From Haliotis rubra (Eukaryota), in NCBI RefSeq assembly GCF_003918875.1, contig NW_025765503.1:1550001-1614000 (forward strand): a stretch of DNA of 64,000 bases, read 5' to 3'. Both the position numbers and the translations under genes were made by a program. Positions 1 through 19,494 of this stretch are shown here, piece after piece (positions within the stretch are counted from its first letter, which is position 1; the number at the start of each line of letters is the position of its first letter). The notes below the pieces were generated by a model. It worked only from the letters and a program-made list of their open reading frames with translations. It ran no database searches and was not told where the DNA came from.

Positions 1-243
1 TATTTAAGATCATATGTTCAATCCTACACCTACAGTAGCATACGTTTACAATCAGTAGATTCAAATGTGTGTGGATTGTATTGTCTATATTATCTGTTGT
101 GCACATTTAAAGCTAACTGGACTTTTCACTACTTTTATCAACAGTTTGATGTAAAAAACTTCAATTGGAATGATATGTTTGTATCTCAATATATTTGTCA
201 CTATTTTAAATATTGTACTCCTTCCTGTTTTGGTTGTCAATGA
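1..243 (+). CDS. C-terminal part of Polinton adenain-like cysteine protease (5' truncated by window edge)
   Basis: Frame 1 reads YLRSYVQSYTYSSIRLQSVDSNVCGLYCLYYLL...CFGCQ*, with the Q-x3-S-x2-CGLYC catalytic Cys motif. AATAAA at 281. Not in the ORF track. Confidence 0.85.
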   Translation, partial: YLRSYVQSYTYSSIRLQSVDSNVCGLYCLYYLLCTFKANWTFHYFYQQFDVKNFNWNDMFVSQYICHYFKYCTPSCFGCQ

Positions 244-389
244 AAATATGTATCATATTTGCATGGAAAAGAAAAAAATCAATAAAAATTAGTTTAGTTT
301 AAATTTTGTGGTTGGTATTTGTATAAAAAAGAAGTCATGTGAGGTTTTAACTCACTACTACAATACACCAGTGAAGTGTGCAAGTCACC

Positions 390-1064
390 ATGGAAGAAAG
401 GTTATGTCTGTTACCCTTTCATGCACCTACTACAATTTCTGTAGCAGGAGGATCCTCTAGTGGTAAAAGTGTTTGGACTGCTCGTCTCATAAATCAAGCG
501 AATACCATGTTTGACCCAGCACCTAACTTGATTATTTACTGTTATGTTGTCTGGCAAGACATTTATACAGAGCTTGAAAAAAGTGTTTGCAATATTAGAT
601 TTCAAGATCACTTGCCTACTGAAGAGGAACTGAAATCTTATTCACATGAATCTGACAAAAAATGTTTGCTTGTTCTGGATGATTACATGCAACAAATTTG
701 TAAAAGTTCTTTGTTTTTAGATCTGTATACCACACTATCACATCATTTCGGAATTACAGTTATAAACATTATGCAAAGTGTGTACCCAAAAGGTGAATGT
801 GCAAGAACAATGTCACTGAACACACATTACTTTATCCTGTTGTCTAATCCACGTTCAGCACATGAATATAAGATTTTAGCATCACAAGTATTTCCAGGTC
901 AAGCTAAGTATTTTGCTGAATCGTTTCAAGATGCAGTAGGAGGAAAGAAATATGGTTATCTTGTCTTAGATGTGTCACCTTATGCTGATGAACAGTACGG
1001 TCGTTTACGCACCAACATATTTACTGATGATGGGATGTGCACAGTCTACCTACCGCAGAAATAA
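390..1064 (+). CDS. A32/FtsK-like genome packaging ATPase
   Basis: Walker A GGSSSGKS, Walker B LLVLDD, SHH...IMQ and R-x2-SLNTHY motifs typical of Polinton ATPases. ATG at 390, TATAAA at 322. Confidence 0.93.
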   Translation: MEERLCLLPFHAPTTISVAGGSSSGKSVWTARLINQANTMFDPAPNLIIYCYVVWQDIYTELEKSVCNIRFQDHLPTEEELKSYSHESDKKCLLVLDDYMQQICKSSLFLDLYTTLSHHFGITVINIMQSVYPKGECARTMSLNTHYFILLSNPRSAHEYKILASQVFPGQAKYFAESFQDAVGGKKYGYLVLDVSPYADEQYGRLRTNIFTDDGMCTVYLPQK

Positions 1065-1140
1065 CTTAGCATGATTTAAATATGCACATAGATGCCTGTG
1101 ATACACCATTTCACTTACAACCTCTGAACTGAACAGAACT

Positions 1141-1485
1141 ATGGATACATGTGGACGGTTTGAACATTTTCCTTACGTGGAAGCAGATTGTGTTGGTGTC
1201 ACACATACTTCTCCCGATGGACAAAAGTTTACTGATAGACTGGCTTCATTTAAGACTTGGCCAACTCAGATCAAACAATCACCTAAAGCCATGGCTGAAG
1301 CTGGATTTATGTACACGGGACAATCTGATAGGGTCTACTGCTTCAAGTGTAAACTTTATGCATCACAGTGGATATCAGAAGATGAACCAATGACTGAACA
1401 TTTTAGACTGTCTCCTCATTGTAACTATATCAACATGATAGCAGCTCCAAAACATACAACTTTAAATAAATATGAATCATCATAG
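1141..1485 (+). CDS. Single-BIR-domain (IAP-like) protein
   Basis: RLASFKTWP...MAEAGFMYTGQSDRVYCFKC...W...DEPMTEHFRLSPHC gives the BIR signature CxxC-x16-H-x6-C. No RING domain. Confidence 0.9.
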   Translation: MDTCGRFEHFPYVEADCVGVTHTSPDGQKFTDRLASFKTWPTQIKQSPKAMAEAGFMYTGQSDRVYCFKCKLYASQWISEDEPMTEHFRLSPHCNYINMIAAPKHTTLNKYESS

Positions 1486-1568
1486 TTTTTCAAAACTGAC
1501 AACCTTCTATAACAACCAATCCACTTCACTTCAGTCATTCTACAGTCAGCTCTCCTACAGCAAACAAA

Positions 1569-2030
1569 ATGTATGCAGTGAAGGAAAGGACTTGTTTGAT
1601 CAACATTATCGAAAAACACAGAAAGAATGATGCAACACTGAAAGAAACAGCTTCTCGAATGTTGTTTACAGTGTCAGTGTGGGGAGACGATTACGCTGCT
1701 TTACATATAGAAAATGACTATGACTCATGGACGGAAGTCTTTAAAGACTTGTTGTGGAATAACAGACTGTGTCCCAACATATTGGATGAAGATATATGGA
1801 CAGATGGAGAGGTAGACTACGAATGCTTCAGTAGCGAAAACGAACGAGCAGCTGCTAATAATATTTTTCGAAATGCTATGTCTTTACAAGATTACGAAGA
1901 CTCAAAACACAGTACCTCTGTGTCTGTTAAGGGTGAAGATTTGTTGGAAAGTTGGCAAAGAGATCCTCCTCATGATTGTAGTCAGTGCGAAGACGATGAC
2001 AATGAAGAAGATGCGAATTTTTGTTTCTAG
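1569..2030 (+). CDS. Acidic hypothetical Polinton protein
   Basis: Intact 153-aa ATG ORF between viral genes, D/E-rich with a C-terminal CxxC. No family recognised. Confidence 0.65.
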   Translation: MYAVKERTCLINIIEKHRKNDATLKETASRMLFTVSVWGDDYAALHIENDYDSWTEVFKDLLWNNRLCPNILDEDIWTDGEVDYECFSSENERAAANNIFRNAMSLQDYEDSKHSTSVSVKGEDLLESWQRDPPHDCSQCEDDDNEEDANFCF

Positions 2031-2097
2031 ATAAATAACAATAACTAAAGATGTGTTTCTTCATTTGAAAGTGGAACAGCTACCCTACAGCATCAAC

Positions 2098-2550
2098 ATG
2101 AGTGGATTGATAAAAAATCATGTTAGTTTCTTAACAGTGTTAGCAGAAGCTAACCCTGCACAGAGAAAGGCTATGCTGTCTCATGCTTCTTCAGAACAAT
2201 TCCTATCAATTCTTACTCTTGTGTATAATATTCTCATGGGTAACATAGAGGTGACAGAAAAAGATAAAACTTGGTTGTCTCGTCGCAAGAAGGTCATTCG
2301 CATGTTAGCCAACAAGGGTGTCAGCAGACACAGAAAACGTGCACTCATCATCTTACACCATTCAATTCTACCTATTTGCATAAGGAGTTATATAACCACT
2401 ATACAAGATGAGCAAGCCAATGATTCTTTTGACAAGAGAGAATTACCAGAGATTGGTGGCAAAACAAGAAGAAGAGAAAGCTCATCAGACAGCTCAACAG
2501 ACACCACAACAGACACCTCATCAGACAGCTCAGCCTCAGAAAGTGAGTGA
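2098..2550 (+). CDS. Polinton/adintovirus-conserved small basic protein (putative virion core protein)
   Basis: L..LAEANPAQRKAML..AS.EQ...I..LVYNIL.GNI.V...K..L.RRKKVIRMLA.K.VS..RKR..I resembles a recurrent Polinton ORF family (recalled, not searched). ATG at 2098. Confidence 0.7.
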   Translation: MSGLIKNHVSFLTVLAEANPAQRKAMLSHASSEQFLSILTLVYNILMGNIEVTEKDKTWLSRRKKVIRMLANKGVSRHRKRALIILHHSILPICIRSYITTIQDEQANDSFDKRELPEIGGKTRRRESSSDSSTDTTTDTSSDSSASESE

Positions 2551-2998
2551 GTCAGATAAGGATGACACTTCACAACTCGTATGCAGCAAGAAGCCTGAAC
2601 ACCTTTTTCAAGTTCCCGAACAATTAATCAGAGACATTTCTTCTACCAAGACTATTGGTAAATTGATGACAATGTGGATGTTTGTGAAAGACAAGATTGA
2701 AAAGGAACAATTAAATGTAGATTCAAATTCACAACTTGTTTTGGGAAATGGTAATGTTGTGAAAAATTCAAATGTAGTAGATTTGATTCGATATTTCATC
2801 CTGTCACCACGAAGTAAGCGCTCACCTGCAGGTTATAAGCAGTTTCTAAAACTGTTAAAACGTTTACATGCACCTAAACAACTTTTGAAAAGAAGAAAAA
2901 CAAAAGACGAAAGACATTCAAATATTTTATACATGAAAAGAAAACCAGCGAAAGGTGTGCCCGGCACAACAAAAATAAGAGCATTAGACGCTCTGTAG
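2408..2998 (+). CDS. Polinton/adintovirus-conserved protein (SNVVDLI...P.GY..F...L...AP motif)
   Basis: C-terminal motif resembles a Polinton ORF family usually next to the preceding gene. Overlaps it by 143 nt. AATAAA at ~3015. Confidence 0.7.
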   Translation: MSKPMILLTRENYQRLVAKQEEEKAHQTAQQTPQQTPHQTAQPQKVSESDKDDTSQLVCSKKPEHLFQVPEQLIRDISSTKTIGKLMTMWMFVKDKIEKEQLNVDSNSQLVLGNGNVVKNSNVVDLIRYFILSPRSKRSPAGYKQFLKLLKRLHAPKQLLKRRKTKDERHSNILYMKRKPAKGVPGTTKIRALDAL

Positions 2999-3156
2999 TT
3001 TTCATGCTTTTTTCAATAAAGACTTAAATTACATTTTATTGTTGTTGTTTTTGCACCGTTGCTCATTTTATTGTTGTTGTCTTTGCACAGTTGCTCATAG
3101 AGCAATTAGCACATCATAGTGCGCATATACACACAGAGGATGAATAACTCCTTCAG

Positions 3157-3384
3157 TCATTGTGGTGTATGACAAGTGCACATACGTGGCTTCTTTTTCT
3201 GCTTCTTCTGTATCGCCTTCCTCCTCACAGCACAAGTGTCTGTATGCGTCATAAACCTGTGATAGGTGTATTTCAGTTTGGTATTGCAATAGACACATGT
3301 AAAGAGTCCTTGATCATCTTCCCCATTTGCATCCACTGACAGGAAGTGATGACACCTTGTGCACATGTAGGCTGCTTCATTCAT
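3157..3384 (-). CDS. Small Cys/His zinc-binding protein with basic tail
   Basis: MNEAAYMCTRC...CVYC...HTDTC...KKQKKKPRMCTCH. Splice acceptor TTATTTACAG (3400-3391) just upstream, candidate donor AAG|GTATGG at 3576, minus-strand AATAAA at ~3035-3072. Confidence 0.55.
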   Translation of the reverse strand: MNEAAYMCTRCHHFLSVDANGEDDQGLFTCVYCNTKLKYTYHRFMTHTDTCAVRRKAIQKKQKKKPRMCTCHTPQ

Positions 3385-3618
3385 CCTGTCCTGTAAATAA
3401 ATCAAACACGCATGTATTAACACAAAATACATGAACATACATTCTCAAATTTCCAAACTTGAAACCAAAAGAATTTCAAAATTATTATAAGTATAATGAT
3501 TATTAGCAATCCAAAAGAAAATTGTTAATAATATCTTTAACAGGTTAAATGATGAATTTTACTGAGACGTCCATACCTTGCTAGAGACTTTATTTTCTTT
3601 CTTTTATTTTTCCTTGAC

Positions 3619-6600
3619 TCACTCTATGGGTGAATAACCATAAGGAACACTGTGAACACCATCTTCTAGCAGATAACGTTTATTGTCACAACTAGTCAAA
3701 GCCATCTTTTGTTCTTTTTGAGTGAACAGAGTATTATTGCAGGATCGAATCAGAAAATAAGAACAGGAGACAGCTTCATTGTGAAATAGACACTCTTTAA
3801 ACATCCTATGTCTAAGAAATTTCTTGATAACTAATTTTTTTATGCCTTTGGCGGTTTTTTTCTCAATGACCTCTTTGTCTGTTTTCATCAAATATGAATA
3901 CATTTTTGCTTTTAAGCCGCAAAATTCCAAAATAATGTTTCCAGATGCTTCATCTTTCATTTTGCCAGTGACTTTTCTGTTTTGGTCAGAATATAATTCC
4001 TTAGGGTCTGTAGGTGCATAATTGGAGGTGTCAAATAAATGCAAATTTTCTTTCATGAACACATAGGGATCAAGAAGTGGTTCATGTGGAGGGGCATGAA
4101 CTTGCATAAAAAGACTGTCAGTGTCTGTCATGAGCAAATCTAAATGCTCATGTCCATATTGCTTTTGCATCACATTGTAGTAGAAGTCATAGATTTCATA
4201 TTTGGCTAAATCTAAAATGGTAAAACCAACAGTGATGGGTTGATCTAAATGTACACTTGTATTTTCCAGTTCAACTGCCACCACCTCTTCTGAATAAATT
4301 TTGACATGTTTGAAGTTGCTTTTAGCAGTAAGTTTTTGAAGTTTTGGTCTTTGTGTCACCAAGTGAACCTTTTTGTGCTTGCGTTTATTCATGCAAAAAC
4401 GACCAAAAACACAATTGTTCATCAATTTGTAACGGTCTTTGTCACAATCATCTTTTGCATTTTTTCGATTTCTCAGGTTGAGTTCAACATAAGATTTTAA
4501 CCATGGTCCTTGACGAAATTTCAACACTCTGTGTATTTGGCTTAAAACCAAACCATGTCTTAAATACAATTGTAATGTTTTGAAATGAACCACATAGTGT
4601 AAACGATTTTTCAAGGTACAAAAAAGCTTTCTGCCAGAGGATTTCTTTGGAAGTTTATGAACGGGACGTTTTAAGAAATGGGCTAATAACTCTTTGTGTT
4701 TAGGAGATAATTCGTGGAATGGAATATCATCGTGAGTTGGAGCCATGGGGAAAGCAGCATGAGCTTTGTGCAAGTGATTGGGGTACAACAAATCCACTTC
4801 CAAGATATAGCCTGTGTCACCTTCTGTATCTACACTGTTCCAGTCAATTTGATTATATTCTTCAGGTTCAATGAACTGATAATTACCAATAGGAAGTGGT
4901 TTTAACATCACAGTGGCGTAAAGCGAATTTACATCAAAATAATTCAAATATGAAGTATCTTTGTCCGGATCAAAATCAACCATGTGTTCATTGTTGCTTT
5001 CCGCATATTTTTTACCAATGACTGACACCCCACCACGAATAGCATTTTCAATGAAATTGTAAGTGTCTACGTTGGTGAACAGATCCAGTTTTGCGCCAGT
5101 GATTTTCATAGCAGCATCCAGACAGAAACCTGGCATGGAGTAATAGTGACAAATGTCTAACCCATAGTCAGCTAAACAGCCTGTTCTAAAGGTTTCAACA
5201 ATATCTGTTAACAACAACACATCTACTGTGACATACAATGTCATAAAATCTGTCATAGATTGACATTCAAATGTTTCCCACAATTCATGAGCAAAGGAAT
5301 AATCATTATCACTAACACCCTCTTCTGACAATGAACTGTAGAATGATTCCTGAGGTGGTAAAGAGGTCTCATCTAAAGTTTCCCATGAACTCATATGTTC
5401 ATAGGGAAATGGAAGTTTTCGTGTTAAGACCTCTACATGGTGAGGAAATTCTTCTTTCAAATATTTAAAAGAATCTACACCTTTTTTCATTTGATTTTTT
5501 GTCAATGCATCCAAAGAACTTTGTAAAAATTTGTATGAATCCAAAAAAACTAACTTATTGTCTATAGTAAAGGACAGAAATTGTTCAGTGGTATGAGGTA
5601 TGACTGTAATCTCTCGATCACCAAACTTTTGTGCCACTTCTAACAACAGATGAGCATCATAATGTTCCAAATTATGAAACATCACAATCACCTTTTTTCT
5701 TAGTTGAAAGTTAAGATTGCATTTGTTATGCAGGACTTGGCGGAATTCACCTGACAAATGGTCATGATCCAGCACTCTATCTTTTCCAAGAAGTTCTCCA
5801 CATAAACCACAATGAGTAGTATTGTTAATGAGTATTTTATTGTCATTGGTAAGCTGCATAGGTTTGACTGAATCAAATAAATTCATAATCTCATCATATT
5901 CTTTTAAAATATTTTCAATGAAGTGTTCAGCTGCATTTTCACCAACAAAAGTCTGAACAGGTTTGGTATATTGCTCATCAGTACATACCACCTTGTAAGC
6001 ATACCCACAAGGCACATGACGATTCAAACGAGGAGAATGACCTTGTTCTGGAATTAATAAACTTTCAAAATCAGCAAATATGATGAATTTAGCTCGATCG
6101 GTTTTGCTTTGTGATCTTAAACCAAACTCATACAATGCTTCTTCCGGTTCAGGTAAAACAACTCTTTGTGCCTTCTTATAACAATACCCTTTGTGAGCCT
6201 CTAACCTTTCTTCAGATGAGTAAGACCATAAACACTTCCTACAAACAAAGGATTTGTTTTGGTTACATCTGCTTCTGATTAATCCATTAAGATTACTGAT
6301 GAGACAGAAGTGTGTATTTAGCTCAATGTCTATATCCATGGCTTCCTCCTGAGATTCTAACCCTAATATCCCTTCAAAATCATCCGGTTCACTTTCCTCT
6401 GACAAAAATAGAAGATCGATTTGTCTGTTTTCATCTACATGCGACTTATCAGAAATATACATTGGATATAAGGTATTGTCTTCAAAGCCAAAAACATTGA
6501 TGCACAAATGGTTCACTTGTTCAAAACGTGGAATTTGTTTCAATGACATAGGAAAAGTAAAGCCTTCCAAATTGAGTGTATTTAGATAGGGGAGGTAATG

Positions 6601-7853
6601 TGTCTCTCGTTCTTTGTGTTGGGTCACTGGATACAATTTGGCAAGAATAGACAAAACAAAACATAAATTATTGTTTTCATTTTTGACATTTGTGATACAA
6701 TACTGGTGTTTTGCTAAACTTGAAGGCAAAGGCATGTAACTACCACCTTTAAATGGTTTAAATTTCACCACAGTGAGTTTCATCATGACAATGGCATTGA
6801 CATTTAAACCAGAATGAACGCCTTCATAATCATCTAAAGTTTGCAACATTTTATTCATTGCTTCCAAGTATTGATCAATCAAATCACTTCCTTCAGTAGC
6901 TATCTGCATCTCGCTTCTAAAATAGGCTTCATGATAATTTGCATTACCACCTTCACCTGGTTTCTCCATCTTGATATGTAAACATAGTGACCATTTAATT
7001 GACTTTTTTCTTTTATTTCTAATTCAAGCATTGAAATAACACTATTCTGTTCTCTGACTAGAAATTCCAATGCATCAGTAGCAGTTCCCTCTTGAATGTC
7101 ATATTCTCTTACATCACCATTTAAGGCTTGATAAGAACATGGTTTTGAAGCATCTGATGAGTCATTTGCAGATGGATGAGACGTGGTTGGAGGTGACCCT
7201 GCAGGCGAATCTTGCTGTACAGACACAGTGGTTGATTTTGTTTTTTGCCTAGCTTTGCCTTTCCCTCTCCCCACCATATCGTGACTAGTTTCATTTTTGT
7301 GCAACCTCAAAGCTTTGGATGTACGAAAGGATTGATTGCATGTTTGACAAGTATGAGGAGATGGGTGAGAAGTGGTTGGTGACAACACTGGAGGTGAATG
7401 ATGTGGTACAGTCACAGTGGCTGATTTTGTTTTTTGCCTACTAGCTTTACCTTTCCCTCTCCCTAACATACCATGGTTAGTTTCATTTTTGTGTAACCTC
7501 AAAGCTTTGGATGTCTGAAAGGATTGATTGCATGTTTGACAAGTATGAGTAGAAGCATTATTTGATGTTGAAGCTCTGTTTGTTGCACATGGATGCATCT
7601 GATAGTCAATTTCATTGCTAAAATACAGAAAGCAATGTGGACATTGACGACAATACACAACTTTTTGCTTACATATTTTGCTGTGTCTTTTCAAGCTGTC
7701 TCTTCTGTTAAATTGTTTTTGACAATATTGACAGGCATACAATGCACCTTCTCTAGCACAGTACTTTTGATGACGAACTAAGTTCCGTTTATATTTAAAA
7801 TTTTGATGACAATGTTCACATGTAAAGATCAAACAGGTGGTATGATCCGACAT
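3619..7853 (-). CDS. polB: Protein-primed family B DNA polymerase (pPolB) polyprotein: C2H2 zinc fingers, terminal-protein region, OTU-like protease, Endo VII/HNH insert, exonuclease, polymerase; one -1 frameshift at ~7004-7009
   Basis: Exo FADFES / FHNLEHYD / YVTVDV; pol YFDVNSLY, KLMNNCVFGR, TDTDS, KAKMY, TAKGI; Endo VII CGLC...DHDHLSG...HNKCN (~5715-5815); OTU-like NLCF...THFCLI. ORFs 6900-7853 and 3619-6969 join into about 1411 aa if one A is added to the A6 run. Confidence 0.93.
7169..7549 (-). repeat. Internal ~190-bp tandem duplication in the PolB N-terminus (C2H2 finger plus basic/Pro-Ser linker, two copies)
   Basis: HTCQTCNQSF(Q/R)TSKALRLHKNET.H.M.GRGKGK occurs twice, period 189-192 nt. 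Confidence 0.9.
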
Positions 7854-8796
7854 TGTAAATCAAGGTTATTCAGCCATGAAAGAGTAAAGATTGCAATGTA
7901 AAGGAACCTGTGGAAGAGAGAAATAACTTGTTAAACATGAATATAGGAATTGTATAAACTGTTTCACAAAATGCAAAAGTGTGCTTTCCTTCACAGAAGT
8001 AATTTTCCTAAACCTCTTTTCCTTAAATGCGTTAAAATTATACAAAAATAATAATCTTACCTTTTGAAAGTGCAAGGCTTCAAATGGGAAAGTTGAGTGG
8101 ATTTTTCTATCTGCCACAAGTGTCTTGTCTGCAGCTTGATTTTGAATGATGAAACGGCACGGTGGAGTAAAGTTTAATACCATTAAAAAGTTTTGCACTC
8201 GCTACTACTGATGATTGGTCAAAAGAAGGGTGAGGTTAAACATGATGAGAAAAACAAACACCATAAGGGAGATTTTGAATAAGTGACTCTGAAGCCCGAT
8301 GTCTTAGTCAACATACTAAGAGCTACCTTATGTTCAAGGTGTTGTCAATAAAAGGTTCTTCTTATCAACAGGTTTCAATGGTGAGTAGAGGGTGTAGTTA
8401 AAAAAGATTATTTTTTTATTTGCTAAAATGTTATATCTGACTATGTCAGTTGGTGCTTGCAGGTGGAGGAGGTGACATGTGATGGTGATTCAGCATCATG
8501 AGATCGCTCATATAATTGGGACTTTTCATTCTTTCATGAGTGAGAGGAGTGTTTCATATTTTCTAAGTAAATACACATTCATGACATTGCTGTTTCTTAA
8601 GTATGTTATAAAAGAAGTGGCATAAAAGGAATTTACGAAAACGGTTAGTCATGACAAAGTTCGATTAAGAAAGAAATGTGCTGACACAAAGAGTAACACA
8701 TTTGCTTTTGGTGTTTCAAAAGGATAGGAATATGTGGGAAAGTAAAAATTCTCACGATATGAAAACACACGTGACTACCAGAAGCAACTATATAAA

Positions 8797-9351
8797 ATGG
8801 AAGCAGCAAAATCTTCATTTAACACTGCTGTTCTTCCTTTGCTGCCGAAAGAAAAGATGAACGATACTTACCAATTTGCTGAGAGACACTATCTCTCAGT
8901 AAATTTCTTCAATGGTGTGGTGTATGTCCACCTCACGAATTGGAACAGTCGTGGAGCAAAAAAGAGCATTTCCATGACAGCTGACATCTTTAAGCTGCTC
9001 ATGAGCTCAGGATCAGACTACACTGAAAAAGTGAAAGACTTTGAGCTACTACACCTACCAGTGGATGTTCCTGAACCGGAAATAGCTGTTCCAGCTGAGT
9101 TGATGCTACCACCACCACCGCCACCACCAGTACCAGCTGGACATGGAAACCCCATCGTCTCAAGCCCTCCACAGACAGTGCTACTGACAGCTGCACTTGG
9201 AAACCCCATTGGGCAAGCAGTCAGCCTTCCATCTGGACAAGTGAGACCAGTATCTCCCACTCCAATGACACAGCCACCGCCTTATCCTGGAACAAGCAGA
9301 CCCACACCTTATTCAAGAGGTAAGATTACTAAAAATTTACTTGTCAGGTGA
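8797..9351 (+). CDS. PC4/Sub1-like ssDNA-binding domain protein with Pro-rich tail (possibly spliced 9320-9695 to end GNK* at 9706)
   Basis: RHYLSVNFFNGVVYVHL...KKSISMTADIFKLL follows the PC4 pattern (YVSV..F.G...VDIR...KKGISL...W..L). Donor AG|GTAAGA at 9320, acceptor TTTACAG at 9695, AATAAA at ~9808. Confidence 0.7.
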   Translation: MEAAKSSFNTAVLPLLPKEKMNDTYQFAERHYLSVNFFNGVVYVHLTNWNSRGAKKSISMTADIFKLLMSSGSDYTEKVKDFELLHLPVDVPEPEIAVPAELMLPPPPPPPVPAGHGNPIVSSPPQTVLLTAALGNPIGQAVSLPSGQVRPVSPTPMTQPPPYPGTSRPTPYSRGKITKNLLVR

Positions 9352-10109
9352 AGTCTTATTGCAGTATGATGTCTAATTGCTTCTGAGTAGTATTCATAGC
9401 ATATTCAAGAAAAGAATATTTCTATTTTACAATATTGATAATTCTAGAGCTAATAAAATAAAAGGTTCGCAGCAAGTAAATTGACCTACGAAAAATAGGT
9501 ATTGAAAATTTATCTGTGTCTTTGTTTTGTGTGTTTAATATAATATTTTTTAATCTAAGTCTGCGACTTTTGTTCTGTGGTTATATCTATGACTTTGACT
9601 GTTATGTTTTAGTATATCTGTCTAATGTTCTTTTACATCAGAGAAGACTATTGTCATTAACAAAATTCATAATATACTGTTGTTTGTATTTACAGGGAAC
9701 AAGTAATGTGAGAGCTGTGCTCCTGTGTCTGTCACTAAGGGTGTAACCTATGATGGATGTGATGCTGGCTCCGATGTGAAGGATGTGACTTCATGCTGGG
9801 TTGTTCAAATAAAAAAAAGATGAACTTCAATACATTTGTTGGTTATGTGTTTCTGGTGTATTGAGAAGTAAACCTAAAATCGTGTATCCATGGATGATAG
9901 ATATTTGCGCCTGTTATATTCTGATGACGCCTGTTGTTCAACAAGCCCTGTGTACTTCTTCGAGTCAAAGTCACCATGAGCTAACTTGGTAACATATTTT
10001 GGTAACTAAAATTGTATAAGATTCATGAAATTTTTTAAAAATAACCTTAAATCAGCTCATGATGACTTTGTCTAAGGATGTGACCAGTATGATCCATGAC
10101 TTCAACTTG

Positions 10110-10500
10110 CATAAACATACACAATGCAAATGAAGATTTATAATTATTTATTACAAAGATATGTTCCACCACTGTGATGAAAAACATCAGTCTCAATGAC
10201 GTCATATGATCACAGTAGTGGAATGTAGTATAATGTGAACATAAACATACACAATGCAATATATTTATTACAAGGAGAATATTATATTTGCTACACTTCA
10301 CCGCTGTGATAAAAAAAATCAGTTTCAGTGACATCATATGATGAAAGCGGTGGAATGTAGCAATATAATATTACATGAACATACAACACTATATTGCAGT
10401 TTATTTGCTGCATTCCACATCATGCTAAATATCTGTCTGAACAACATCATGCTATCAAGATGTGGAATGTAGCTAATGAATAATATTTGCTACATTTTTC
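10110..10500. repeat. Degenerate ~115-130-bp tandem repeat, each unit an imperfect hairpin
   Basis: Arms 10164-10178/10209-10223, 10278-10305/10346-10372 and 10407-10421/10459-10473; all 3' arms contain TGGAATGTAG. Confidence 0.8.
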
Positions 10501-10749
10501 ACATATGATGACAATGGTGGACTATATATTACATGGACATACAAGAGGTAGAGTTTACATGTTTTGTTTAATGATGAAAAATAGTAGGGCAGGTTGCCTC
10601 TACAGTTGCTGATGACCCATGCCACTGCTATAAAATAATCTCTGAATTTTGTCTAAATTACATTCCAGGAGGTCTGGGTTTGTTGAGCACTGTGGTGGTG
10701 GAGGTACTGAGCTGTTCCTTTTCCTGGTTGAACTGAACTGCTGCCTGCC

Positions 10750-13596
10750 TCATTTCAGGACATTGTTGCTGCTGAAGACTCCTAGGGGGGCTGGTTGAGT
10801 GTGCTGTCTTAATTGTGTCATTTCAAGACACACTTGTCTTGGTGGTGCTTGCCTCCGCCTTCCTCCTAATCGGTGTCCTTGTCTCCTCCTCCAAAGCCCC
10901 CAGCCAGTGCCTCCTCCGACAAAGGCGACTAGCAAGATGACAAAGGTGGTAACTGAAAAAGTAAAAAAAGCAGATAGTTATACCAAGGATTCTTGTTAAG
11001 TTAATACAAAGTTGGTTTGGGATTTTGCTATTTCACTTGAAAATTATACTTACTTAGTTTTCGCTATTGGTCTTTGCCTAATTTGCTACTTTTTACATGC
11101 ATAAAATGTTTACAAACGTACCAGCAAAGGGGTCATAACCATCATCGTCTTCGTCATCATCATCAGCAGCAGCAGCAGCATCATCAACATCGTCATCATC
11201 ATCTTCACCATCATGATTATAAAAATAGTGGAAAGGATCTGAAGGGGAGAGAGGAGGGGAAAAGGTTAACAGGATAGGATGCCTAACATAAATTATATTA
11301 TAATAGAAATTACAATTGATGAGAAACAAGTTAACTTATAGAAATTGGATTATGTAAAATTGAATATAGAAAATGTGAGAACACAAATATTAACTTATAG
11401 ATGGGAAACAGTGTCTTTGTAAATTGGATTATCCATAAGAACAAATGCTTTTTTTGCTTTCTTTTTAGATTTAACATATTTATGATATAAAATTAGTATA
11501 AAGATAACAATAACAATAAAAGTACCTATTACAGAACTGGCAATCACAGCGCTGTTAGCTGACTTAGTAGAAGTGGAATTAAGGGGAACAGTTGGGAGAG
11601 AGTGATGTATAGAAGTATAGTTGTGTGAAGAAGGTGTAACTGTAGATGTAACTGCAGTGGTATGATTAGGATTTGTTCTGATAACATGTGAACTAGTGTA
11701 GATAGGGTGGGGTGTAGGGTAGGGGGTGTGCCATTGGGTATTGAGTGCAGTATGTGTGTAGATAGATGTTGTACATAGTGTAAGACTCTGGTTGCACAGA
11801 GTGATAGTAGGTGTAAGCTTTGTGTGGGTAGGGTAGGTGGAGGGGGTAGGTGCAATATGTGTGTAAATAGATGTTGTAAAGATAGGTTATAGGTGGATGG
11901 TTCTAGACTATGGTTGTGAGAGACTGATAGTTAGACTAGGTGTAAGCTTTGTGTAGGGTAGGTGGAGGTAATATGAGTTTGATTGTAATGAGGTTGAGAG
12001 GAGAATAGGTGTGGGCACAGAAGGTTGAGACACTGTAAGGTGAGAAAGTTAGTAATACTTAAGAGTTATATTTCATATTAAAACAACTTTACAACTGAAA
12101 TTTAATAATAACTAATCAAAATATACATTCATAATATTAAAAGGTGCATTATCTTTCTTTGAAATGGCATTTAATATTGTACTGACTAATATAATTTTAG
12201 CTCTCAAACTTTTGTACACAAATAATGATAATGCCTCATTCATAAAAAAAACAAAAAAAGGTGCATTATCAACAACAGAAGGTAAATGTTGTGAACATGA
12301 TGAACAGAAGGTATAAAGTTATGATAAAACTATCAACTCAGAACATAGTGTTAGTGATACAGAGATGCCAACCCTCCAGTATAGCTTACTGCACAAATTT
12401 CACTTACCTCTACGACTGTGGTGATAAAAAAAGACCGGAAACTACACGCGAAAATTATACCGTTGTGTTTTACGAAAACATAACATTGTGTTGCAAAAGC
12501 ATACACGGAAACATTGTGTGTGATGACAGCATACCACCCACGTGACGATGTTTGATGTAAATTAGACTACTGTAATTATTGAGTATAGTAGCATTAGATG
12601 ACACCCATGGCAAAAGATATAACATATGCACCTCCATGTTCAAAACTACCAGAGTCTGTGTCTGTGAGCCTGTTTGACAGGAAGTACGAGAGGAAATATA
12701 CAACGTGATGATCCCTGTGAAGGTTGTAATAGTTAAATAAATATATAAAAAAAAATATTATTAAGCTACGCAGGATTCATTTATCAATTCATTTAATCAA
12801 TGAAGCAGTTCATGCGACAACTCGATTATATGGATATTTTTGTTTATATTGCATGAGAGCATTATGGCTGACCTTTGACACTGCGTGTCAACACCGTGTG
12901 TGGTAGTAATCTGAAATCAGGTTACGCTTGAGTGATTTACTGCATAAGAAGCCAGAGTGTTTTTTTAAGCTTGTGCCTAACTAAATGAAACCGGTTTTAA
13001 GCTACTATCAACACGATCTATGGTGACATATGTAAACAGACATTTAGCATTTTTCTAACGGAAGATACTTGTCATAGCAGAAACGTGATGTATTTTATTT
13101 GTGAAGGGTTGGCACCGCTGCACTAACAGTTGAAGCATGCATAAACATTCATTCAGTACTTACCGTTCACGTTGCAACGTTCCCCGTTGACAGTGATTCC
13201 ATGCTTGGGTGGGGTTAGAACACTACGACATGTAGCTAATCCTCCACGTATTAGCTGTAATATTAAGTTATATTAAGTTTTATAATTATAAGGGTATTAT
13301 TTTACAAAGAAATTGATTTGAGATAAGTTAAAACTATTTTTATAAGTTCAAATACAGAACATATATTAACTCACCAAAAGCCTTGGGAACAGAGAGGCAC
13401 TGATCAATAGGTGATCAGCGGTGCCGATTAGATGAATGACTCGGACTGTGGGGTAGGGAGAGCCTGATAGATGGGTCAATGTACCCCCGCCTGCAGATTT
13501 ACAAGCGAGGGTAACTCCAGAGCTTATACATTTCTCGGCAAATTCATTGCCAGAAACAACACAACATAAAATGGAAATGACAAGAAGCCCTCTCAT
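10750..13596 (-). CDS. Predicted 5-exon type I membrane glycoprotein (signal peptide, Cys domain, mucin-like stalk, acidic patch, TM, basic tail); exon 3 has two in-frame stops, so possibly a pseudogene
   Basis: Exons 13596-13375, 13254-13164, 12032-11526, 11238-11122, 10952-10750, all with GT/AG sites and compatible phases (0,1,1,1), 380 codons in total. GCCATG start, MRGLLVISILCCVVSG signal, TM FAVTTFVILLVAFVGGGTGWGLW then RRRQ. Stops at 11910 and 11889. Confidence 0.65.
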
Positions 13597-14089
13597 GGCG
13601 AGCGCAATTTGACGCATGATCATACCTTTTAACCGTCGCGTATTGTATTTGTGCCAAATTAATCTGTTAACCAATGAAAATGATTGTCACATGGATTGCA
13701 CGTGCGGACGAGAGTGTAAAGGTTAAAGGGAACGAATATGATATAATGGGAAGAATTTGACAATATTATGATAACAATAAGTTTATAATTTAGGTCAAAG
13801 AGACTTGCTACTTTTCACCATGTTGTCGGGGCAATTTCTGCCAAAACAATATTAGGAAATAGTAAATGAGGTGATAATTGACAAGTGTGACACGCGGTCA
13901 GCATTGTGTGTGATAAGATGATGACACACTGACCTGAGTGCTTAGACGAATATAGTGAGACAAATATTATAAACATGTTACGAGAGATAGTGACATATAT
14001 TGTGATGAATACATAAGATATTTACAAAATTATAAAGAATTTAAAGATGACTTTATAGATGGATAGATTACTTCTAATTATACTCACCA

Positions 14090-14437
14090 CTAATGCCGCT
14101 TAACGCAGTATGTGCTTAACATCATCAAGATCTGAATAACTTCCAATTTCGATAATACTACTGCTTTATCGGAATGTATCTGAGTTATTGTTACAGATGA
14201 TGTTTTAGAGGAATAATTAAAATTAATTTCGCAAGGAAGACGCTCGCAAAACAAAAAAAATGAATTTAGAGAATAAGGCAAAGTTCTGTCTTCCAAATTT
14301 GTAATAGTGCTAACTAAATGATTAAAAGTTTCTTTCAGTACGGAAGCTTTAAAATGTGAACAAAATGTAATGGATTTTCCGGATTTAGAAATTTGAAAAT
14401 GTTCTGTAATAGGCGAATAACTCAGATAAGCATTCAT
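14090..14437 (-). CDS. Hypothetical Polinton accessory protein, paralog A
   Basis: 115-aa ATG ORF, TATA ~40 nt upstream, splice donor GTGAGT just after the stop. Weak colinear similarity to 14857-15234. Confidence 0.55.
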   Translation of the reverse strand: MNAYLSYSPITEHFQISKSGKSITFCSHFKASVLKETFNHLVSTITNLEDRTLPYSLNSFFLFCERLPCEINFNYSSKTSSVTITQIHSDKAVVLSKLEVIQILMMLSTYCVKRH

Positions 14438-14856
14438 AGCGAAATGCTGAAGTTGGAGAGGTGAACATGTTCTCTTATAAAGCTGTTAGAATAAATTCAT
14501 CAGAGTGAAAGATGAACGCGATTTGCGATTGGACAAGCACTATATGAAAAGATACGCCCTAACTGTGTATATGTAAGTATATAAAATATTAGCAATGGTT
14601 CAAAGGCCTGATATGTTTTATGCGCATGTAAAAGAGTAAGACAAGATATATATTTTTAAGTTATTTAAAACAATGATTCAATATTATAAAAGGCTTACCT
14701 AAGGAGAAGTTGAATTATTAGAGAAAATGTTACATTTAATTAAAACCTGTTTCAAAATGTGTTTGGTAGTAAATGAAAGAATTAAAAGACAAAAATAGGT
14801 AACAGAAAAATAAAGTGATTACATATAATTAGAATATTACAGATAATTACTAACCT

Positions 14857-15234
14857 TTAGTAGAGGCTTGTATAACTGTGGAGCTCCTCTTGTTGCGATT
14901 CACACTCCCAACTTATGATGTCCGAAATAATGGCTTTAATGGCTCGGTGATTAATTGTTATCATAGAATTTTGAAAAGTTATATCTAAAAGTTCCGTTTT
15001 TGCATCAAAATTAAAACATGACTGGCATGTTTTGCCTAAACAAAAGGTTATTTTTTTTTCGTTAAAGTTGGGTTCTAGATTAAATTCGAGGTATAATTTA
15101 TGACATGACAAAATATACTTTAGAATATTTTTGAATTTCTTTCGTAAGTGTTCACAAATGAAAATTTCAGTGTTATTGCTCATAAAACAAAATTTTGGAA
15201 CCGTGGAAGTTTGATGGATATCGAAGAGCGCCAT
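14857..15234 (-). CDS. Hypothetical Polinton accessory protein, paralog B
   Basis: 125-aa ATG ORF, TATATA ~40 nt upstream, donor-like AG|GTTAGT after the stop. Cys/His spacing shared with paralog A. Confidence 0.55.
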   Translation of the reverse strand: MALFDIHQTSTVPKFCFMSNNTEIFICEHLRKKFKNILKYILSCHKLYLEFNLEPNFNEKKITFCLGKTCQSCFNFDAKTELLDITFQNSMITINHRAIKAIISDIISWECESQQEELHSYTSLY

Positions 15235-15822
15235 AGCATATGAACAGAGCTATACTCTAAGTTGAGGTGTATATAGGGGCTATTTTTAAATTCATTGATT
15301 ATGGCATTGAAAGGGATATTTCTAAAGAAAATATGAATGTTATAAGAAAATGCTGCAGAAGAGGTGAGTGGTGGCAGGCCTTTAATTTGAACAAAGTTAG
15401 ATAGTAGGTGAACGGTGACAGACATTTGATTTGAACAAGGTTAGATATTTCATTTGCGTTAGGTTAGTAAATACTGAAAATGATTGTATTTCTATGGAAT
15501 ATTGTGTTGAAGGTGACAACTGAAGTGTTTTGAATGCCCATAGGGCAGGGTACATTTATAAGCGTAGATTTGAATTATTTCCCAACGTTATTATGCATTA
15601 GCTATGTGATATACAGATAACTCCGTGAGAAAAAATGTATTTTATAAAAGATGATGAAGGTACTACTGAAAGATAATAGTTACACGTGATGTACAGATGA
15701 ATAGATAATGCAAGGTGTGACTTGATGAATGGGATAAACGTGTTTATTTTGTTTGAATGAGAAGTAATAATAACGGTATACAACCTGACGAAATATTGGG
15801 AATGTAGAGAGAAGACGAAACG

Positions 15823-16272
15823 ATGTCGCAAGAGGAGTTTCTGAGAGTTTTAGGTTTAAACGCAGTAACTAAATTGAGTACTTCAGAAAATAAGCCACTA
15901 ATTAAAGAAACAAAAATATTAACTGATAAACAGATAGACATTTTGGAAAGACTTCGACTTGTAAAAATAAATGATAAAAGAAAAGAATTGGATAATTTTA
16001 AAAGAAAAAGACTAATAAGGTGGAGAAAAGAATACAAGATCATTCAAGAAAAAGAAAGGAAAGAAGAACAAAGGAGAGAAAGACAGCGGAGAAAAGAAGA
16101 AAGAGAAGAAAGAGAGAGGAAAAAAGGAGAGAGAGAGGAAAGAGAGAGAGAAGAAAGAGAGAAAGAAAAGGAGCAAAGGCAGTGTGGTGAATGTGTGATA
16201 AGACTAAAACACATTAACATACAAACTGAAATATTAAAGTTACACTGCAAACCATGCATCGTGCAACTTTAG
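15823..16272 (+). CDS. Charged (E/R/K) coiled-coil protein with two C-terminal CxxC-(V/I)-x-x-L motifs
   Basis: 149-aa ORF with ERKEE-rich centre, CGECVIRL and CKPCIVQL; AG|GTAAGT donor at the stop. Confidence 0.55.
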   Translation: MSQEEFLRVLGLNAVTKLSTSENKPLIKETKILTDKQIDILERLRLVKINDKRKELDNFKRKRLIRWRKEYKIIQEKERKEEQRRERQRRKEEREERERKKGEREEREREEREKEKEQRQCGECVIRLKHINIQTEILKLHCKPCIVQL

Positions 16273-16582
16273 GTAAGTTTGACTTTTCTACTTTTACTTT
16301 GAAATGTATATCTATTTTGATGGGTATGGAATTACATATATTGATTACAGGAATATATTTATTTGAAACATAAAGCAAGAGTAAGCTCCACATTAGGTGA
16401 CATTTTAATTAGTTTAAAACGATTTATTTTGAAAGGCGCAACTTTGAGTAAAACATGAGCTATGTCATTGCACGTGGAGTAGAACTGTTATTATTTGATT
16501 GGTTGACACGCTTACCTAGTTGGAATACCTGGATTTAAATGTATACTGGAAAGGAATGTTATTGTATCATGACAGCATACTA

Positions 16583-16854
16583 CCTCCACAGTTATGCCAA
16601 GTATTTTCATTGTGGAGCAACAATCTACTCCACACTGCTCCACAGTTATGTAAAATATTTCCATTGTTTAAGTGTGGAGCAAGCATCTGCTCCACACTGC
16701 TCTACACGACTCCACACTGCTCCACAGTTATGCTATTGTTTGGGAGATGGAATGTCTTTTGTTGGGTTCAGGAATGCTATTGTTTAGCTTGGAATGCTAT
16801 TGTGTAGCGCATATTTTCCATTGTGTGGCTATGACTGTGTACTTTCTTACTACT
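16583..16854. repeat. Polinton subterminal repeats and right terminus (presumed TIR end)
   Basis: Iterated CTCCACACTGCTCCACAGTTATG and TATTTTCCATTGT units ending in ACTACT. The next 6 bp, GAAATT, are the predicted TSD. Confidence 0.7.
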
Positions 16855-19494
16855 GAAATTTTCAAAATGAAATTTCATGGATTCTTACTCATGTTCTATG
16901 GGTCAATGGACTCGACACGGGAAGGCAAACCTTAGATCGTAAATTATTGCACTAACTTTAATGTAGACTTGAGACATTAAAACTCACTGTTACGGTTAAA
17001 TGCACAATTGCATACTCAAAGGTAACACTAAGTTTTAAGTGAAACATAAACTGACTGTTTCGGTAATTATATAATACACGCAATGAAAACTTTAGATTGA
17101 TCTATTAACGCTTGTGAAGTGATAGAAGTAAACGTGAAAGAAATTAATGTAGAACATATATTCAGAATATATGATCATTCAAATAATTAACCATGCCTTT
17201 ACCTCCATATAAGTTATACTGTATTTGCAAATATCATAAAATGTATTGAACGAAGAAGAATAAAGGAAACCTCTTTGGAATATTATATTTTTATACTAAG
17301 TCACGGGTAACATAAACAGTACAAATCTTCTAGCTAACTTAAACAACTTTTTAACTGTATCTCGGATTTAAATATAAATAGCCTAAATGTCAGTTCCTAC
17401 CATGGTTAGTTAAAAGAGAGTCACTTTAGGATTAGGAACAAAATGCTGCAAATACATTTGTCACGACATCTCCTGATCAGTTGCGTTTTGTTATATCTGT
17501 TTGTTTGTTTTTAAATTTTGTTATTTAAATATTCGAAGCACATAATTCTGCGTTAAATTCCTTGTTCAATGAATAGTTCGCCGTCAGGCATGTCAGTTTC
17601 CCTTTTGTCTTTAGTTACATTCACGTTTTCAGCTGGAAGATAAGGTGAACGGTTCTCACATTCAGACTGAAAGGCTTTAGAAGAAGCTTGTTGAAGAGGA
17701 GAATGGTATGAGACTGATGAGTAATTTGGATAAGATGTGCGCTACATAAACACAGGGGTTAATAGGAGGCATCTTCACGTATCTACTAAAGTATCCACAT
17801 AATAAAAGTAGTGAAATGAAAACAAAACGTGTTAACTATATTTGAATGTAGCTACAATGCTAACTGAAATAATAATTATGAAAATACCTTATTCATTCAT
17901 TGTTTGTTGGGGTTTCTTTTCGAATTCACAACGTTGCAATTCGTGTGCGATAGTTAGGCCCGCCGCTAAGCTTCTTAAGCCTCCTGTAGGGATAAATTCA
18001 ATTTTAACTTCAACGGTGCATAAAATTGTCATAAGGATTGCATAAACCTCACTCCCTATATCTCTTATCTCAGTAGGGGGTGTGAATCGCTTTATTGTAT
18101 GCGTTATTTATATTAGTCTTTAATCTATCTCAAGAATAATGCATAACGCAAAATGTGGGTAATAGTGGCGAATGATGAGCGGCAAACTTGGGTTTATGAG
18201 AAACATTTTGGAAATCACTTGGGCTAACTGGTGCTTTATAACCAACATTTATTAGTTAGCAAGGCAAAATCAACAATTCCATTGATTCAAAGCTCTTATT
18301 CGAACATCATTTGATCATTCTCTAAACCAGAGACCATATCAAATCTTATTATCTGGATAAAAGATCGAAAAATACTTTGAAAGAATAATGTCTTAAGTCG
18401 TAATAAAAGTACATTATGTGTGATTCTGTTCATTGTTATACGTGTAAAACAGTCGATATATCAGCCTTAATTCTAAATTACAGTACACATTGTCATGCAT
18501 TATATGCTATTAGTAAACACTTGTAATTGCGTGAAGTAAAACATATTCAATATCTTCAAAGCTTTAACATCACATGACCACGAACTGAAAATGTAATGAC
18601 ATCTATTAAATGTACACACAAAATAAAGTTTGGTCTCAGTTTGAATAAGCACAATAATTTCTCATGTAAAACAATATATTTGTTTGAAAACTTTACTTTT
18701 ATATTCATATTTCACTTTTAAAGCAATACAGGTTTATAAGTATTGACATACGTGTCATTTAATTTTGTCTTTTTCTCTGTTTCATGTTATGTGACAGACT
18801 CAGGTTCATTAAAAAGAATATGACATCAGTACAACATACGTCATGGCGTTTTCTAGAAATAAGAAGAAAATAGGTTAATGTCTTCTTCTCGAAATACATT
18901 GTCCTTTATTTGCGTCACATTTACCATGAATGCATTAACAATCAAGAACCCCTAAGGGAAAATGTATTCAATTTCTGATCATCAAAGTTAGCACCATTCA
19001 TTTGCATTCACATCTTCATCTAATTGTCCTTGGTTTTCATACGCTTTTTCACATGTGTCACTTTCTTTTTGCTTACCTCTGATTATAATTTTTCGCATAT
19101 CTTTATTTTAGTGGATTTGTGGTAAATGTCTCCTCCAACAGTGAAATACCATCAAATGTGTGTCAACTTCCTTTCAGTGAACAGTCTATATATTTTGATA
19201 TATGTAGTGTTTTGAACAAATTGGAACATTAATAACACCGATCAATACTAAACAGGTTTGGTGCTTCATATGAAATGTGTTTTGACCTCCTTTGTAAATA
19301 TAGGAGAGTGTTAACATTATGTGCCTGACCAAATGACAACGTGATAATCAGAGAGAAACTGTCAAAACAATAAGATTGATTCCTATTTCAGTGGTGAAAT
19401 ATGCGCTTTGTTTCTTCAAGTCATTGTTTGGTTGATTCCGACTGATGGTATGAATAATGCTGTAAGTAACTGTTCAAGCGGTCGTCACTGATAC

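Follow-up and report, generated by a model that had tools for sequence, protein, structure and literature searches.

The window analysed in this study, a stretch of 64,000 nucleotides (64 kb) from Haliotis rubra, carries the right part of a Polinton/Maverick-type element at positions 1..16854. Analysis of the element revealed a protein-primed DNA polymerase B (pPolB; 3619-6969, minus strand; Pfam DNA_pol_B_2, E 5.6e-24), a P-loop protein (390-1064) with 5174 unnamed relatives and a small protein with a single BIR, the inhibitor of apoptosis domain (1141-1485; Pfam E 2.5e-22); zinc fingers were also found in element proteins. The right border is marked by ACTACT at 16849-16854, with subterminal 10- and 20-bp repeats within 16560-16854, and the left end lies outside the window. 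No integrase, protease or capsid gene was recognised among the 16 proteins scanned. A convergent plus-strand gene (8797..9830) has an intron at 9320-9695 and an AATAAA near 9808 and shows 99% identity to a Haliotis rubra record; its likeness to PC4 (score 0.88) is taken as a lead only. The region 19500-64000 holds a host cluster of at least eight paralogous genes for Gly/Tyr/Asn- and Gly/His-rich secreted proteins, which share upstream motifs and of which two or more are inverted.

Facing the convergent gene is a minus-strand gene for a membrane protein, whose structure was obtained by aligning public contigs from four of the 11 listed runs to 8700-12400. The contigs of three runs (X1 and X3 from the same study, X8 from another) were taken as RNA solely from their GT-AG joints. 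In these runs single contigs join 11837-11519, 106 letters, 10953-10785, 201 other letters and then 10587 onward, running down to 10154 (X1), 10350 (X3, where adapter letters follow) and 10202 (X8). Across the first joint (10953-11519) depth is 0 in the fourth run, X5, whose contigs cover all 30 bins. The splice ends are GT-AG only on the minus strand, with donors at 11525 and 11121 and acceptors at 11239 and 10953. Three exons were thus delimited on this strand: a Ser/Thr/Pro/His-rich, mucin-like exon (11526..12032), a small acidic exon (11122..11238) that is deduced from the 106 letters at the contig joint, and a last exon (10130..10952, the 3' end being approximate) with a hydrophobic segment, a basic tail, a UGA at 10752-10750 in the window copy and a 3' UTR with hairpins. 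Translated together, they give a Ser/Thr/Pro-rich stalk and an acidic stretch, followed by a hydrophobic segment and a basic tail. Loose contig ends at 12024 lead into 13164 (X3) or 12632 (X8), both at minus-strand GT donors; the donors at 12631 and 13163 thus share one acceptor (12033), which represents alternative splicing of the Polinton membrane-protein gene. A homologue search with the putative first exon found none.

Three hairpins, at 10164..10228 (unit 1), 10278..10372 (unit 2) and 10400..10481 (unit 3), lie on the minus strand within this last exon and not, as the sequence-only reading had it, in a gap between convergent genes. Unit 1 has a helix I of 15 bp followed by an internal loop and the core described below, and the X1 contig covers it down to 10154; helix I of unit 2 is about 27-28 bp. 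Unit 2 is covered by X1 and X8 contigs and unit 3 by X1, X3 and X8 contigs. Because these contigs are continuous with the spliced exons, and although contigs cannot directly show strand or ends, we assign the hairpins to the 3' UTR of the spliced minus-strand membrane-protein mRNA. A 3' UTR ending before 10473, which would have spoken against the earlier proposal, is contradicted by the spliced contig reaching 10154. All three minus-strand frames are closed by 10473 or soon after, and the hairpins are therefore non-coding.

Each hairpin is accompanied by a potential poly(A) signal on the minus strand. The AAUAAA after hairpin 1 (10147..10152), followed by a GU-rich stretch at about 10110-10130, is judged from its letters to be the likely distal signal; the one after hairpin 2 (10264..10269) precedes the same GU-rich stretch (10240-10259), and a third, identified from the sequence, overlaps the 3' base of hairpin 3 (10400..10405). 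Both proximal signals are read through by X1 and X8 contigs. The interval 9831-10153 is uncovered by any X1, X3 or X8 contig and the contigs stop at differing places, so this gap was counted neither against plus-strand RNA nor as evidence for polyadenylation. An inverted repeat (9963-10073; 25-nt arms, 84% complementary, 61-nt spacer), unrelated to the hairpin units, lies just past the likely distal poly(A) site.

Comparison of the units revealed that they are tandem duplicates spaced by 132 bp and then 112-113 bp. Units 1 and 2 share 84% identity across 62 nt, and full units are 76% identical with the AAUAAA and GU-rich spacer included: the repeat unit of 112-132 bp also holds TTTATT and the spacer, of which 20 nt are identical at 10110 and 10240. 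Tandem Repeats Finder did not report an array at the hairpins. A truncated fourth unit (about 10476..10545, minus strand) is an arm remnant with neither core nor seed match, and it is unfolded (fold z -0.1 and +0.6). A position scan placed three TGGAATGTA matches on the plus strand at 10219, 10351 and 10463, confirming the three TGGAATGTAG first described; since the units are tandem duplicates, these three seed matches represent one event and not three. TGGAATGTA has six matches in the 64-kb window against 1.16 expected, three of the six being in the hairpins. A lone TGGAATGTA at 10667-10659, also on the mRNA strand (minus) and with letters complementary to those of the invariant arms, sits within a segment for which the expressed allele has other letters; the idea that it marks an inverted degenerate unit was rejected as not significant, 55 of 786 window pieces scoring equally well, and the match is judged to be chance.

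The folding of the hairpins was compared with shuffled controls, and all three lie well below the shuffles on both strands. Fold z values for units 1 to 3 are -3.6, -6.4 and -3.9 on the plus strand and -4.7, -6.1 and -2.9 on the minus strand; none of 200 shuffles folded equally well in five of the six folds, and one of 200 did in the sixth. Among all 110-nt windows of 1-18000 the hairpins rank top by GC-corrected energy, and in units 2 and 3 the fold of the plus strand equals or surpasses that of the minus strand. The stems had been described as covarying, but covariation is not significant, since two-sided changes occur in one of 21 outer-stem pairs and 378 of 500 shuffles of the three-row alignment do equally well. 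This alignment contains three closely related units only, and the upper stem of unit 3 is poorly registered in it through indels.

The expressed copy of the gene differs from the window, in that all four runs, X5 included, carry 201 other letters in place of 10588-10784, and because of this replacement the stop codon of the expressed copy is unseen. Part of the replaced segment (10667-10766) matches a divergent copy, and a paralog has four extra letters over 10667-10766. In the window copy, two element copies seem to have been combined, either as a mosaic or through chimeric assembly. In the window copy the UGA is followed by 49 open in-frame codons (10600-10752, minus strand), an arrangement not conserved among the visible alleles, and selenocysteine read-through of this UGA is accordingly not supported. 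The X5 allele carries nine substitutions over 9652-10587, six of them within the hairpins (read by hand). In all six cases the minus-strand pairs of helix I and of the kink-turn register considered below stay unbroken; three changes add a Watson-Crick (WC) pair, one converts the third pair to U.U and another falls in the internal loop. One substitution turns G-C into G.U on the minus strand, the same change being a mismatch on the plus strand. A divergent X5 contig aligns within the gap 9906-10681 solely at 10318-10339, that is, at core 2 (22 nt, in a partial view), and another contig, deduced from depth sums, matches about 10308-10344 with a different preceding arm. No related elements were found in the public viral or metagenome contigs searched, and a protein search found no related viral loci. 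Scans of the collection gave three loci with isolated 20-27 nt matches, one locus inside a coding frame and four loci with single cores that lack the long helix, all judged to be chance; one further scan gave 0 loci.

Weak Rfam box C/D matches over the loops led to a core motif that went unnoticed in the sequence-only reading, although the hairpins it described are real. On the sense strand the loop of each full unit reads AUGA-Y-GU-N7-AC-W-GAU, exact and identically spaced in 3/3. The cores are at 10186..10205 (unit 1, AUGA-C-GU-N7-AC-U-GAU), 10318..10337 (unit 2) and 10431..10450 (unit 3), all on the minus strand. A possible drawing of each places a third pair (C.U, U.U and U-A in units 1, 2 and 3, respectively) above tandem G.A/A.G, followed by G-C, U-A and a variable sixth pair, a kink-turn/SECIS-core-like arrangement. 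A scan for a generic SBP2-type core gave 134 matches across both strands of the window; only three of the 134 flank a helix of at least 12 pairs, and these are the three units, all on the minus strand. A fourth exact match to the core at 18825-18844 (minus strand; 0.03 expected) lies outside the element, is not among the long-helix cores and probably arose by chance.

SBP2 needs tandem G.A, a non-WC third pair, a purine-pyrimidine fourth pair and at least two WC pairs, it prefers an open internal loop, and the AAR is dispensable for binding (PMC1874613). Tandem G.A, the preceding AU, the purine-pyrimidine fourth pair, at least two WC pairs and the open internal loop were each found in 3/3 units, and a non-WC third pair in 2/3; the units depart from these rules in the third pair of unit 3, in the favoured purine-pyrimidine fifth pair (here U-A) and in the length of helix II (PMC1874613). 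The eukaryotic SECIS core, which is the SBP2 K-turn, thus shares with the units a 3' UTR hairpin with helix I, an open internal loop, AUGA...GA tandem G.A, a U.U or C.U third pair (2/3 units) and a G-C fourth pair (PMC1874613). All three sense-strand units have the RUGA...GA non-WC core on top of an internal loop and helix I. Unlike SECIS elements, the units have a helix II of 2-3 WC pairs, occur in three tandem copies and have no AAR at the SECIS distance, just 11 nt separating the third-pair letters; all known SECIS are stated to have a long helix II, whose length adds affinity (PMC1874613). The hairpins were therefore rejected as SECIS elements for want of a long helix II and an AAR loop, and no SECIS model was among the 34 Rfam matches.

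The box C/D K-turn/K-loop bound by 15.5K is a second likeness, the units having a C-like AUGAUGU and a D-box CUGA that give G.A, A.G, U.U and G-C; in contrast to box C/D RNAs, the units are internal to an mRNA 3' UTR, their boxes are 9 nt apart with no guide region, the C box is imperfect and the D box of unit 3 is CAGA (10.64898/2026.08.03.742641). The klRNAs are intronic with terminal boxes, unlike the units (10.64898/2026.08.03.742641). A box C/D snoRNA or klRNA was rejected on the box spacing and on the best Rfam C/D scores (21.8-23.7 bits against gathering scores of 55-65). By eye, an ENE was rejected because the U-run is on one side only, and an IRE because there is no CAGUGN loop on the sense strand.

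Each unit was also compared with miR-1, using the bilaterian seed. The sense RNA reads ACAUUCCA, the miR-1 8mer site and not the seed, in 3/3 full units: within an invariant 11-nt arm in unit 1 (10219..10226, minus strand) and, by position scan, at 10351..10358 and 10463..10470 (both minus strand) in units 2 and 3. That functional miR-1 sites repress the membrane gene in miR-1-rich tissue such as muscle, or that Argonaute-loaded miR-1 opens helix I, is in our estimate unlikely. The location given by the sequence-only reading, miR-1 sites in a minus-strand 3' UTR, stands, the UTR extending to at least 10154 with three exact 8mers, but the sites lie in paired stretches (pairing probability 0.5-1.0 for almost every position). 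Under whole-hairpin constraints, opening the sites in units 1 to 3 costs 8.9, 13.8 and 12.4 kcal/mol against -9.0 from seed pairing, whereas background opening (n=150) has a median of 2.5, a 90th percentile of 5.7 and a maximum of 10.2 kcal/mol. RNAplfold gave opening costs of just 1.0-4.8 kcal/mol, by which 2/3 sites are not unusually buried; whole-hairpin opening was preferred because RNAplfold, with its 150-nt windows, often truncates the hairpins. Should folding be more local, these modelled figures would weaken the claim that the sites are buried. The 11-nt arm is invariant in 3/3 units while its partner arm varies (P 0.017, column shuffle) and carries none of the nine X5 substitutions, which is the best evidence for miR-1 function, and miR-1 is abundant in a gastropod, a whelk (PMC5714496). 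Against such function, the fourth unit has no site and the divergent copies do not align at the arms, although an isolated 11-mer could go unreported. The earlier caveat of a chance seed match amplified by duplication is apt: a 120-nt unit would match the 8mer site or seed of some miRNA family with probability 0.12-0.32, assuming 30-90 families.

A further possibility, which we consider quite improbable, is a sense-strand (minus) small RNA whose 5p product, antisense to miR-1, starts near GCUACAUUCC/UACAUUCC and takes the invariant arm as its seed. A Microprocessor substrate has a stem of about 35 bp and a DROSHA cut about 13 bp from its base (PMC7668254); in unit 2 the invariant arm begins 11-13 nt above the stem base, near such a cut, a UG lies just outside that base and the minus strand is transcribed. 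The stems, however, are 15-28 bp with loops of at least 30 nt, the minus strand offers no firm lower stem in units 1 and 3, and no Rfam miRNA match reaches its gathering score. A plus-strand viral miRNA cluster mimicking miR-1, the first suggestion made for this array, is poorly supported and appears more improbable again. Measured from the stem base, the seed begins at 20, 22 and 19 nt in the three units, a distance compatible with Dicer cleavage of a base-trimmed hairpin, and the plus strand folds at least as well as the minus strand in two units; a Drosha-independent Dicer route exists, as for adenovirus VA RNA. The mimic needs a cut leaving a UGG 5' end, for which the geometry is right for Dicer on a trimmed hairpin and wrong for Microprocessor: because there is no lower stem and there are 5-10 pairs above the seed, a Microprocessor cut would leave UGGAAUGUA mid-strand. 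Moreover, all splice evidence is on the minus strand, the upstream plus-strand gene has its own AATAAA, and no Pol III box or terminator was found by eye at the hairpin ends. Rfam gave no mir-1 among 34 matches at E<=10, none of the 34 reaching the gathering score, and neither the stem, the cut position nor the family model agrees with a canonical pri-miRNA or the mir-1 family. Viral precedents are known in the KSHV miR-K12-11 seed mimic and in the miRNA-binding transcripts HSUR1 and MCMV m169; the units resemble these in an exact match to an abundant host miRNA in several copies, but here the sites are buried in stems and mimic precursor geometry is lacking. A DNA element, that is, an hr-like enhancer or origin with CRE-like sites, is the least probable of the explanations. 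The units share with baculovirus hr repeats tandem imperfect palindromes with CRE-like letters (TGACGTCA in unit 1, TGACATCA in unit 2), and their DNA folds at -11 to -19 kcal/mol; unlike hr repeats they are transcribed into an mRNA 3' UTR, have 30-nt spacers between the arms and occur at a single locus in the part of the element seen. The earlier comparison with hr palindromes gains no positive support. Unit 3 has no CRE-like site; the X5 allele loses the perfect one, and one allele change keeps pairing solely as RNA, as the G.U on the minus strand. Polintons replicate from their ends by protein priming, which also counts against a DNA origin here.

The strongest competitor is a generic structured 3'-end module, acting as dsRNA in poly(A)-site choice, stability, localisation or the binding of dsRNA-binding proteins, or else a near-neutral duplication, with seed and G.A letters coincidental; we regard this as possible but doubtful. 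It accommodates duplicates that include the AAUAAA and the GU-rich spacer, the chance rate of miRNA-family matches and the number of generic cores in the window, and in units 1 and 2 the inner register with plain WC/G.U pairing has the better fold energy. It leaves unexplained why the divergent copy retains the core alone in this gap, and plain pairing does not account for the invariant G.U wobbles and the invariant loop letters.

Overall, our analysis suggests, tentatively and at a little under even confidence, that the triplicated structured 3'-end module is a site for an L7Ae-family protein in a kink-turn-like fold, and we infer that the hairpins act as RNA. The tandemly triplicated unit consists of a hairpin, an AAUAAA and a GU-rich stretch and lies in the last exon of the minus-strand Polinton gene, which is spliced; each hairpin would present its tandem G.A/A.G core with a long helix I and an open internal loop beneath it. 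The core would be capped by a helix II of 2-3 bp and a loop of 5-7 nt, giving a truncated SECIS-like kink-turn on which an L7Ae-domain protein could dock; SBP2 or SBP2L, both of which favour open internal loops, is more plausible than 15.5K. The docked protein might raise translation or stability of the mRNA, or the host protein might be titrated; UGA recoding is not expected because there is no AAR loop at the SECIS distance. The choice among the three AAUAAA signals would set the number of cores per transcript, and the miR-1 match would be incidental or secondary. A precedent is the SECIS-like 3' UTR hairpin of Tcf7l2 mRNA, which does not encode a selenoprotein and whose translation this hairpin raises through Sbp2l (PMC10783607); that case is a mouse host gene with single elements, whereas here a virus-like transposon carries tandem units, and the two are likened by description.

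The kink-turn reading is favoured by the spliced contigs linking coding exons to hairpins in X1, X3 and X8, by the identical core spacing in all three units, by the restriction of long-helix cores to these units on one strand, by the alignment of the divergent X5 copy at core 2 and by X5 hairpin substitutions that spare the minus-strand helix I and kink-turn pairs. Several findings weigh against it. The motif was found after several candidate motif types had been viewed, and its rarity is therefore overstated. The letters fit a kink-turn in 3/3 units, but a rival register with a 7-bp inner helix is better paired (90.5%, with one two-sided change, against 75% and none) and folds better in 2/3; the energetic penalty for imposing the kink-turn register is 6.6, 5.6 and 0 kcal/mol in units 1 to 3 under a model that gives G.A pairs no score, and there is no canonical C-stem directly below the bulge. 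The short helix II and the U-A fifth pair fall outside what is favoured or known for SECIS (PMC1874613). The comparison involves just the three units, which are closely related, and incomplete sequences of other copies, with no significant covariation, and the divergent-copy match is just 22 nt, seen in part. The kink-turn reading also leaves unexplained the invariance of the 11-nt miR-1 arm, which is as invariant as the core. A combined proposal, which we hold to be improbable, would join the two: truncated SECIS cores may recruit or titrate SBP2/SBP2L without UGA recoding, on a helix whose 5' strand is the miR-1 site, so that miR-1-rich cells would unzip the element, a miRNA-gated kink-turn switch with copy number set through alternative polyadenylation.

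Results from this study indicate that the hairpins are real, expressed and structured and that they are unlikely to be the miR-1 mimic first suspected. Gene regulation in Polintons is hardly described, and here a Polinton gene is spliced, alternatively spliced and equipped with a triplicated structured 3' UTR module. A literature search returned no such SBP2-type case for a Polinton or a virus, although this does not prove that none exists. Should the units bind no protein, the module would be no more than a tandemly duplicated poly(A) region. Should SBP2 or SBP2L bind the core, a virus-like element would be using or jamming the RNA-binding step of selenoprotein synthesis without making a selenoprotein, and the units would constitute a natural minimal substrate for roles of the SBP2 family outside UGA recoding.
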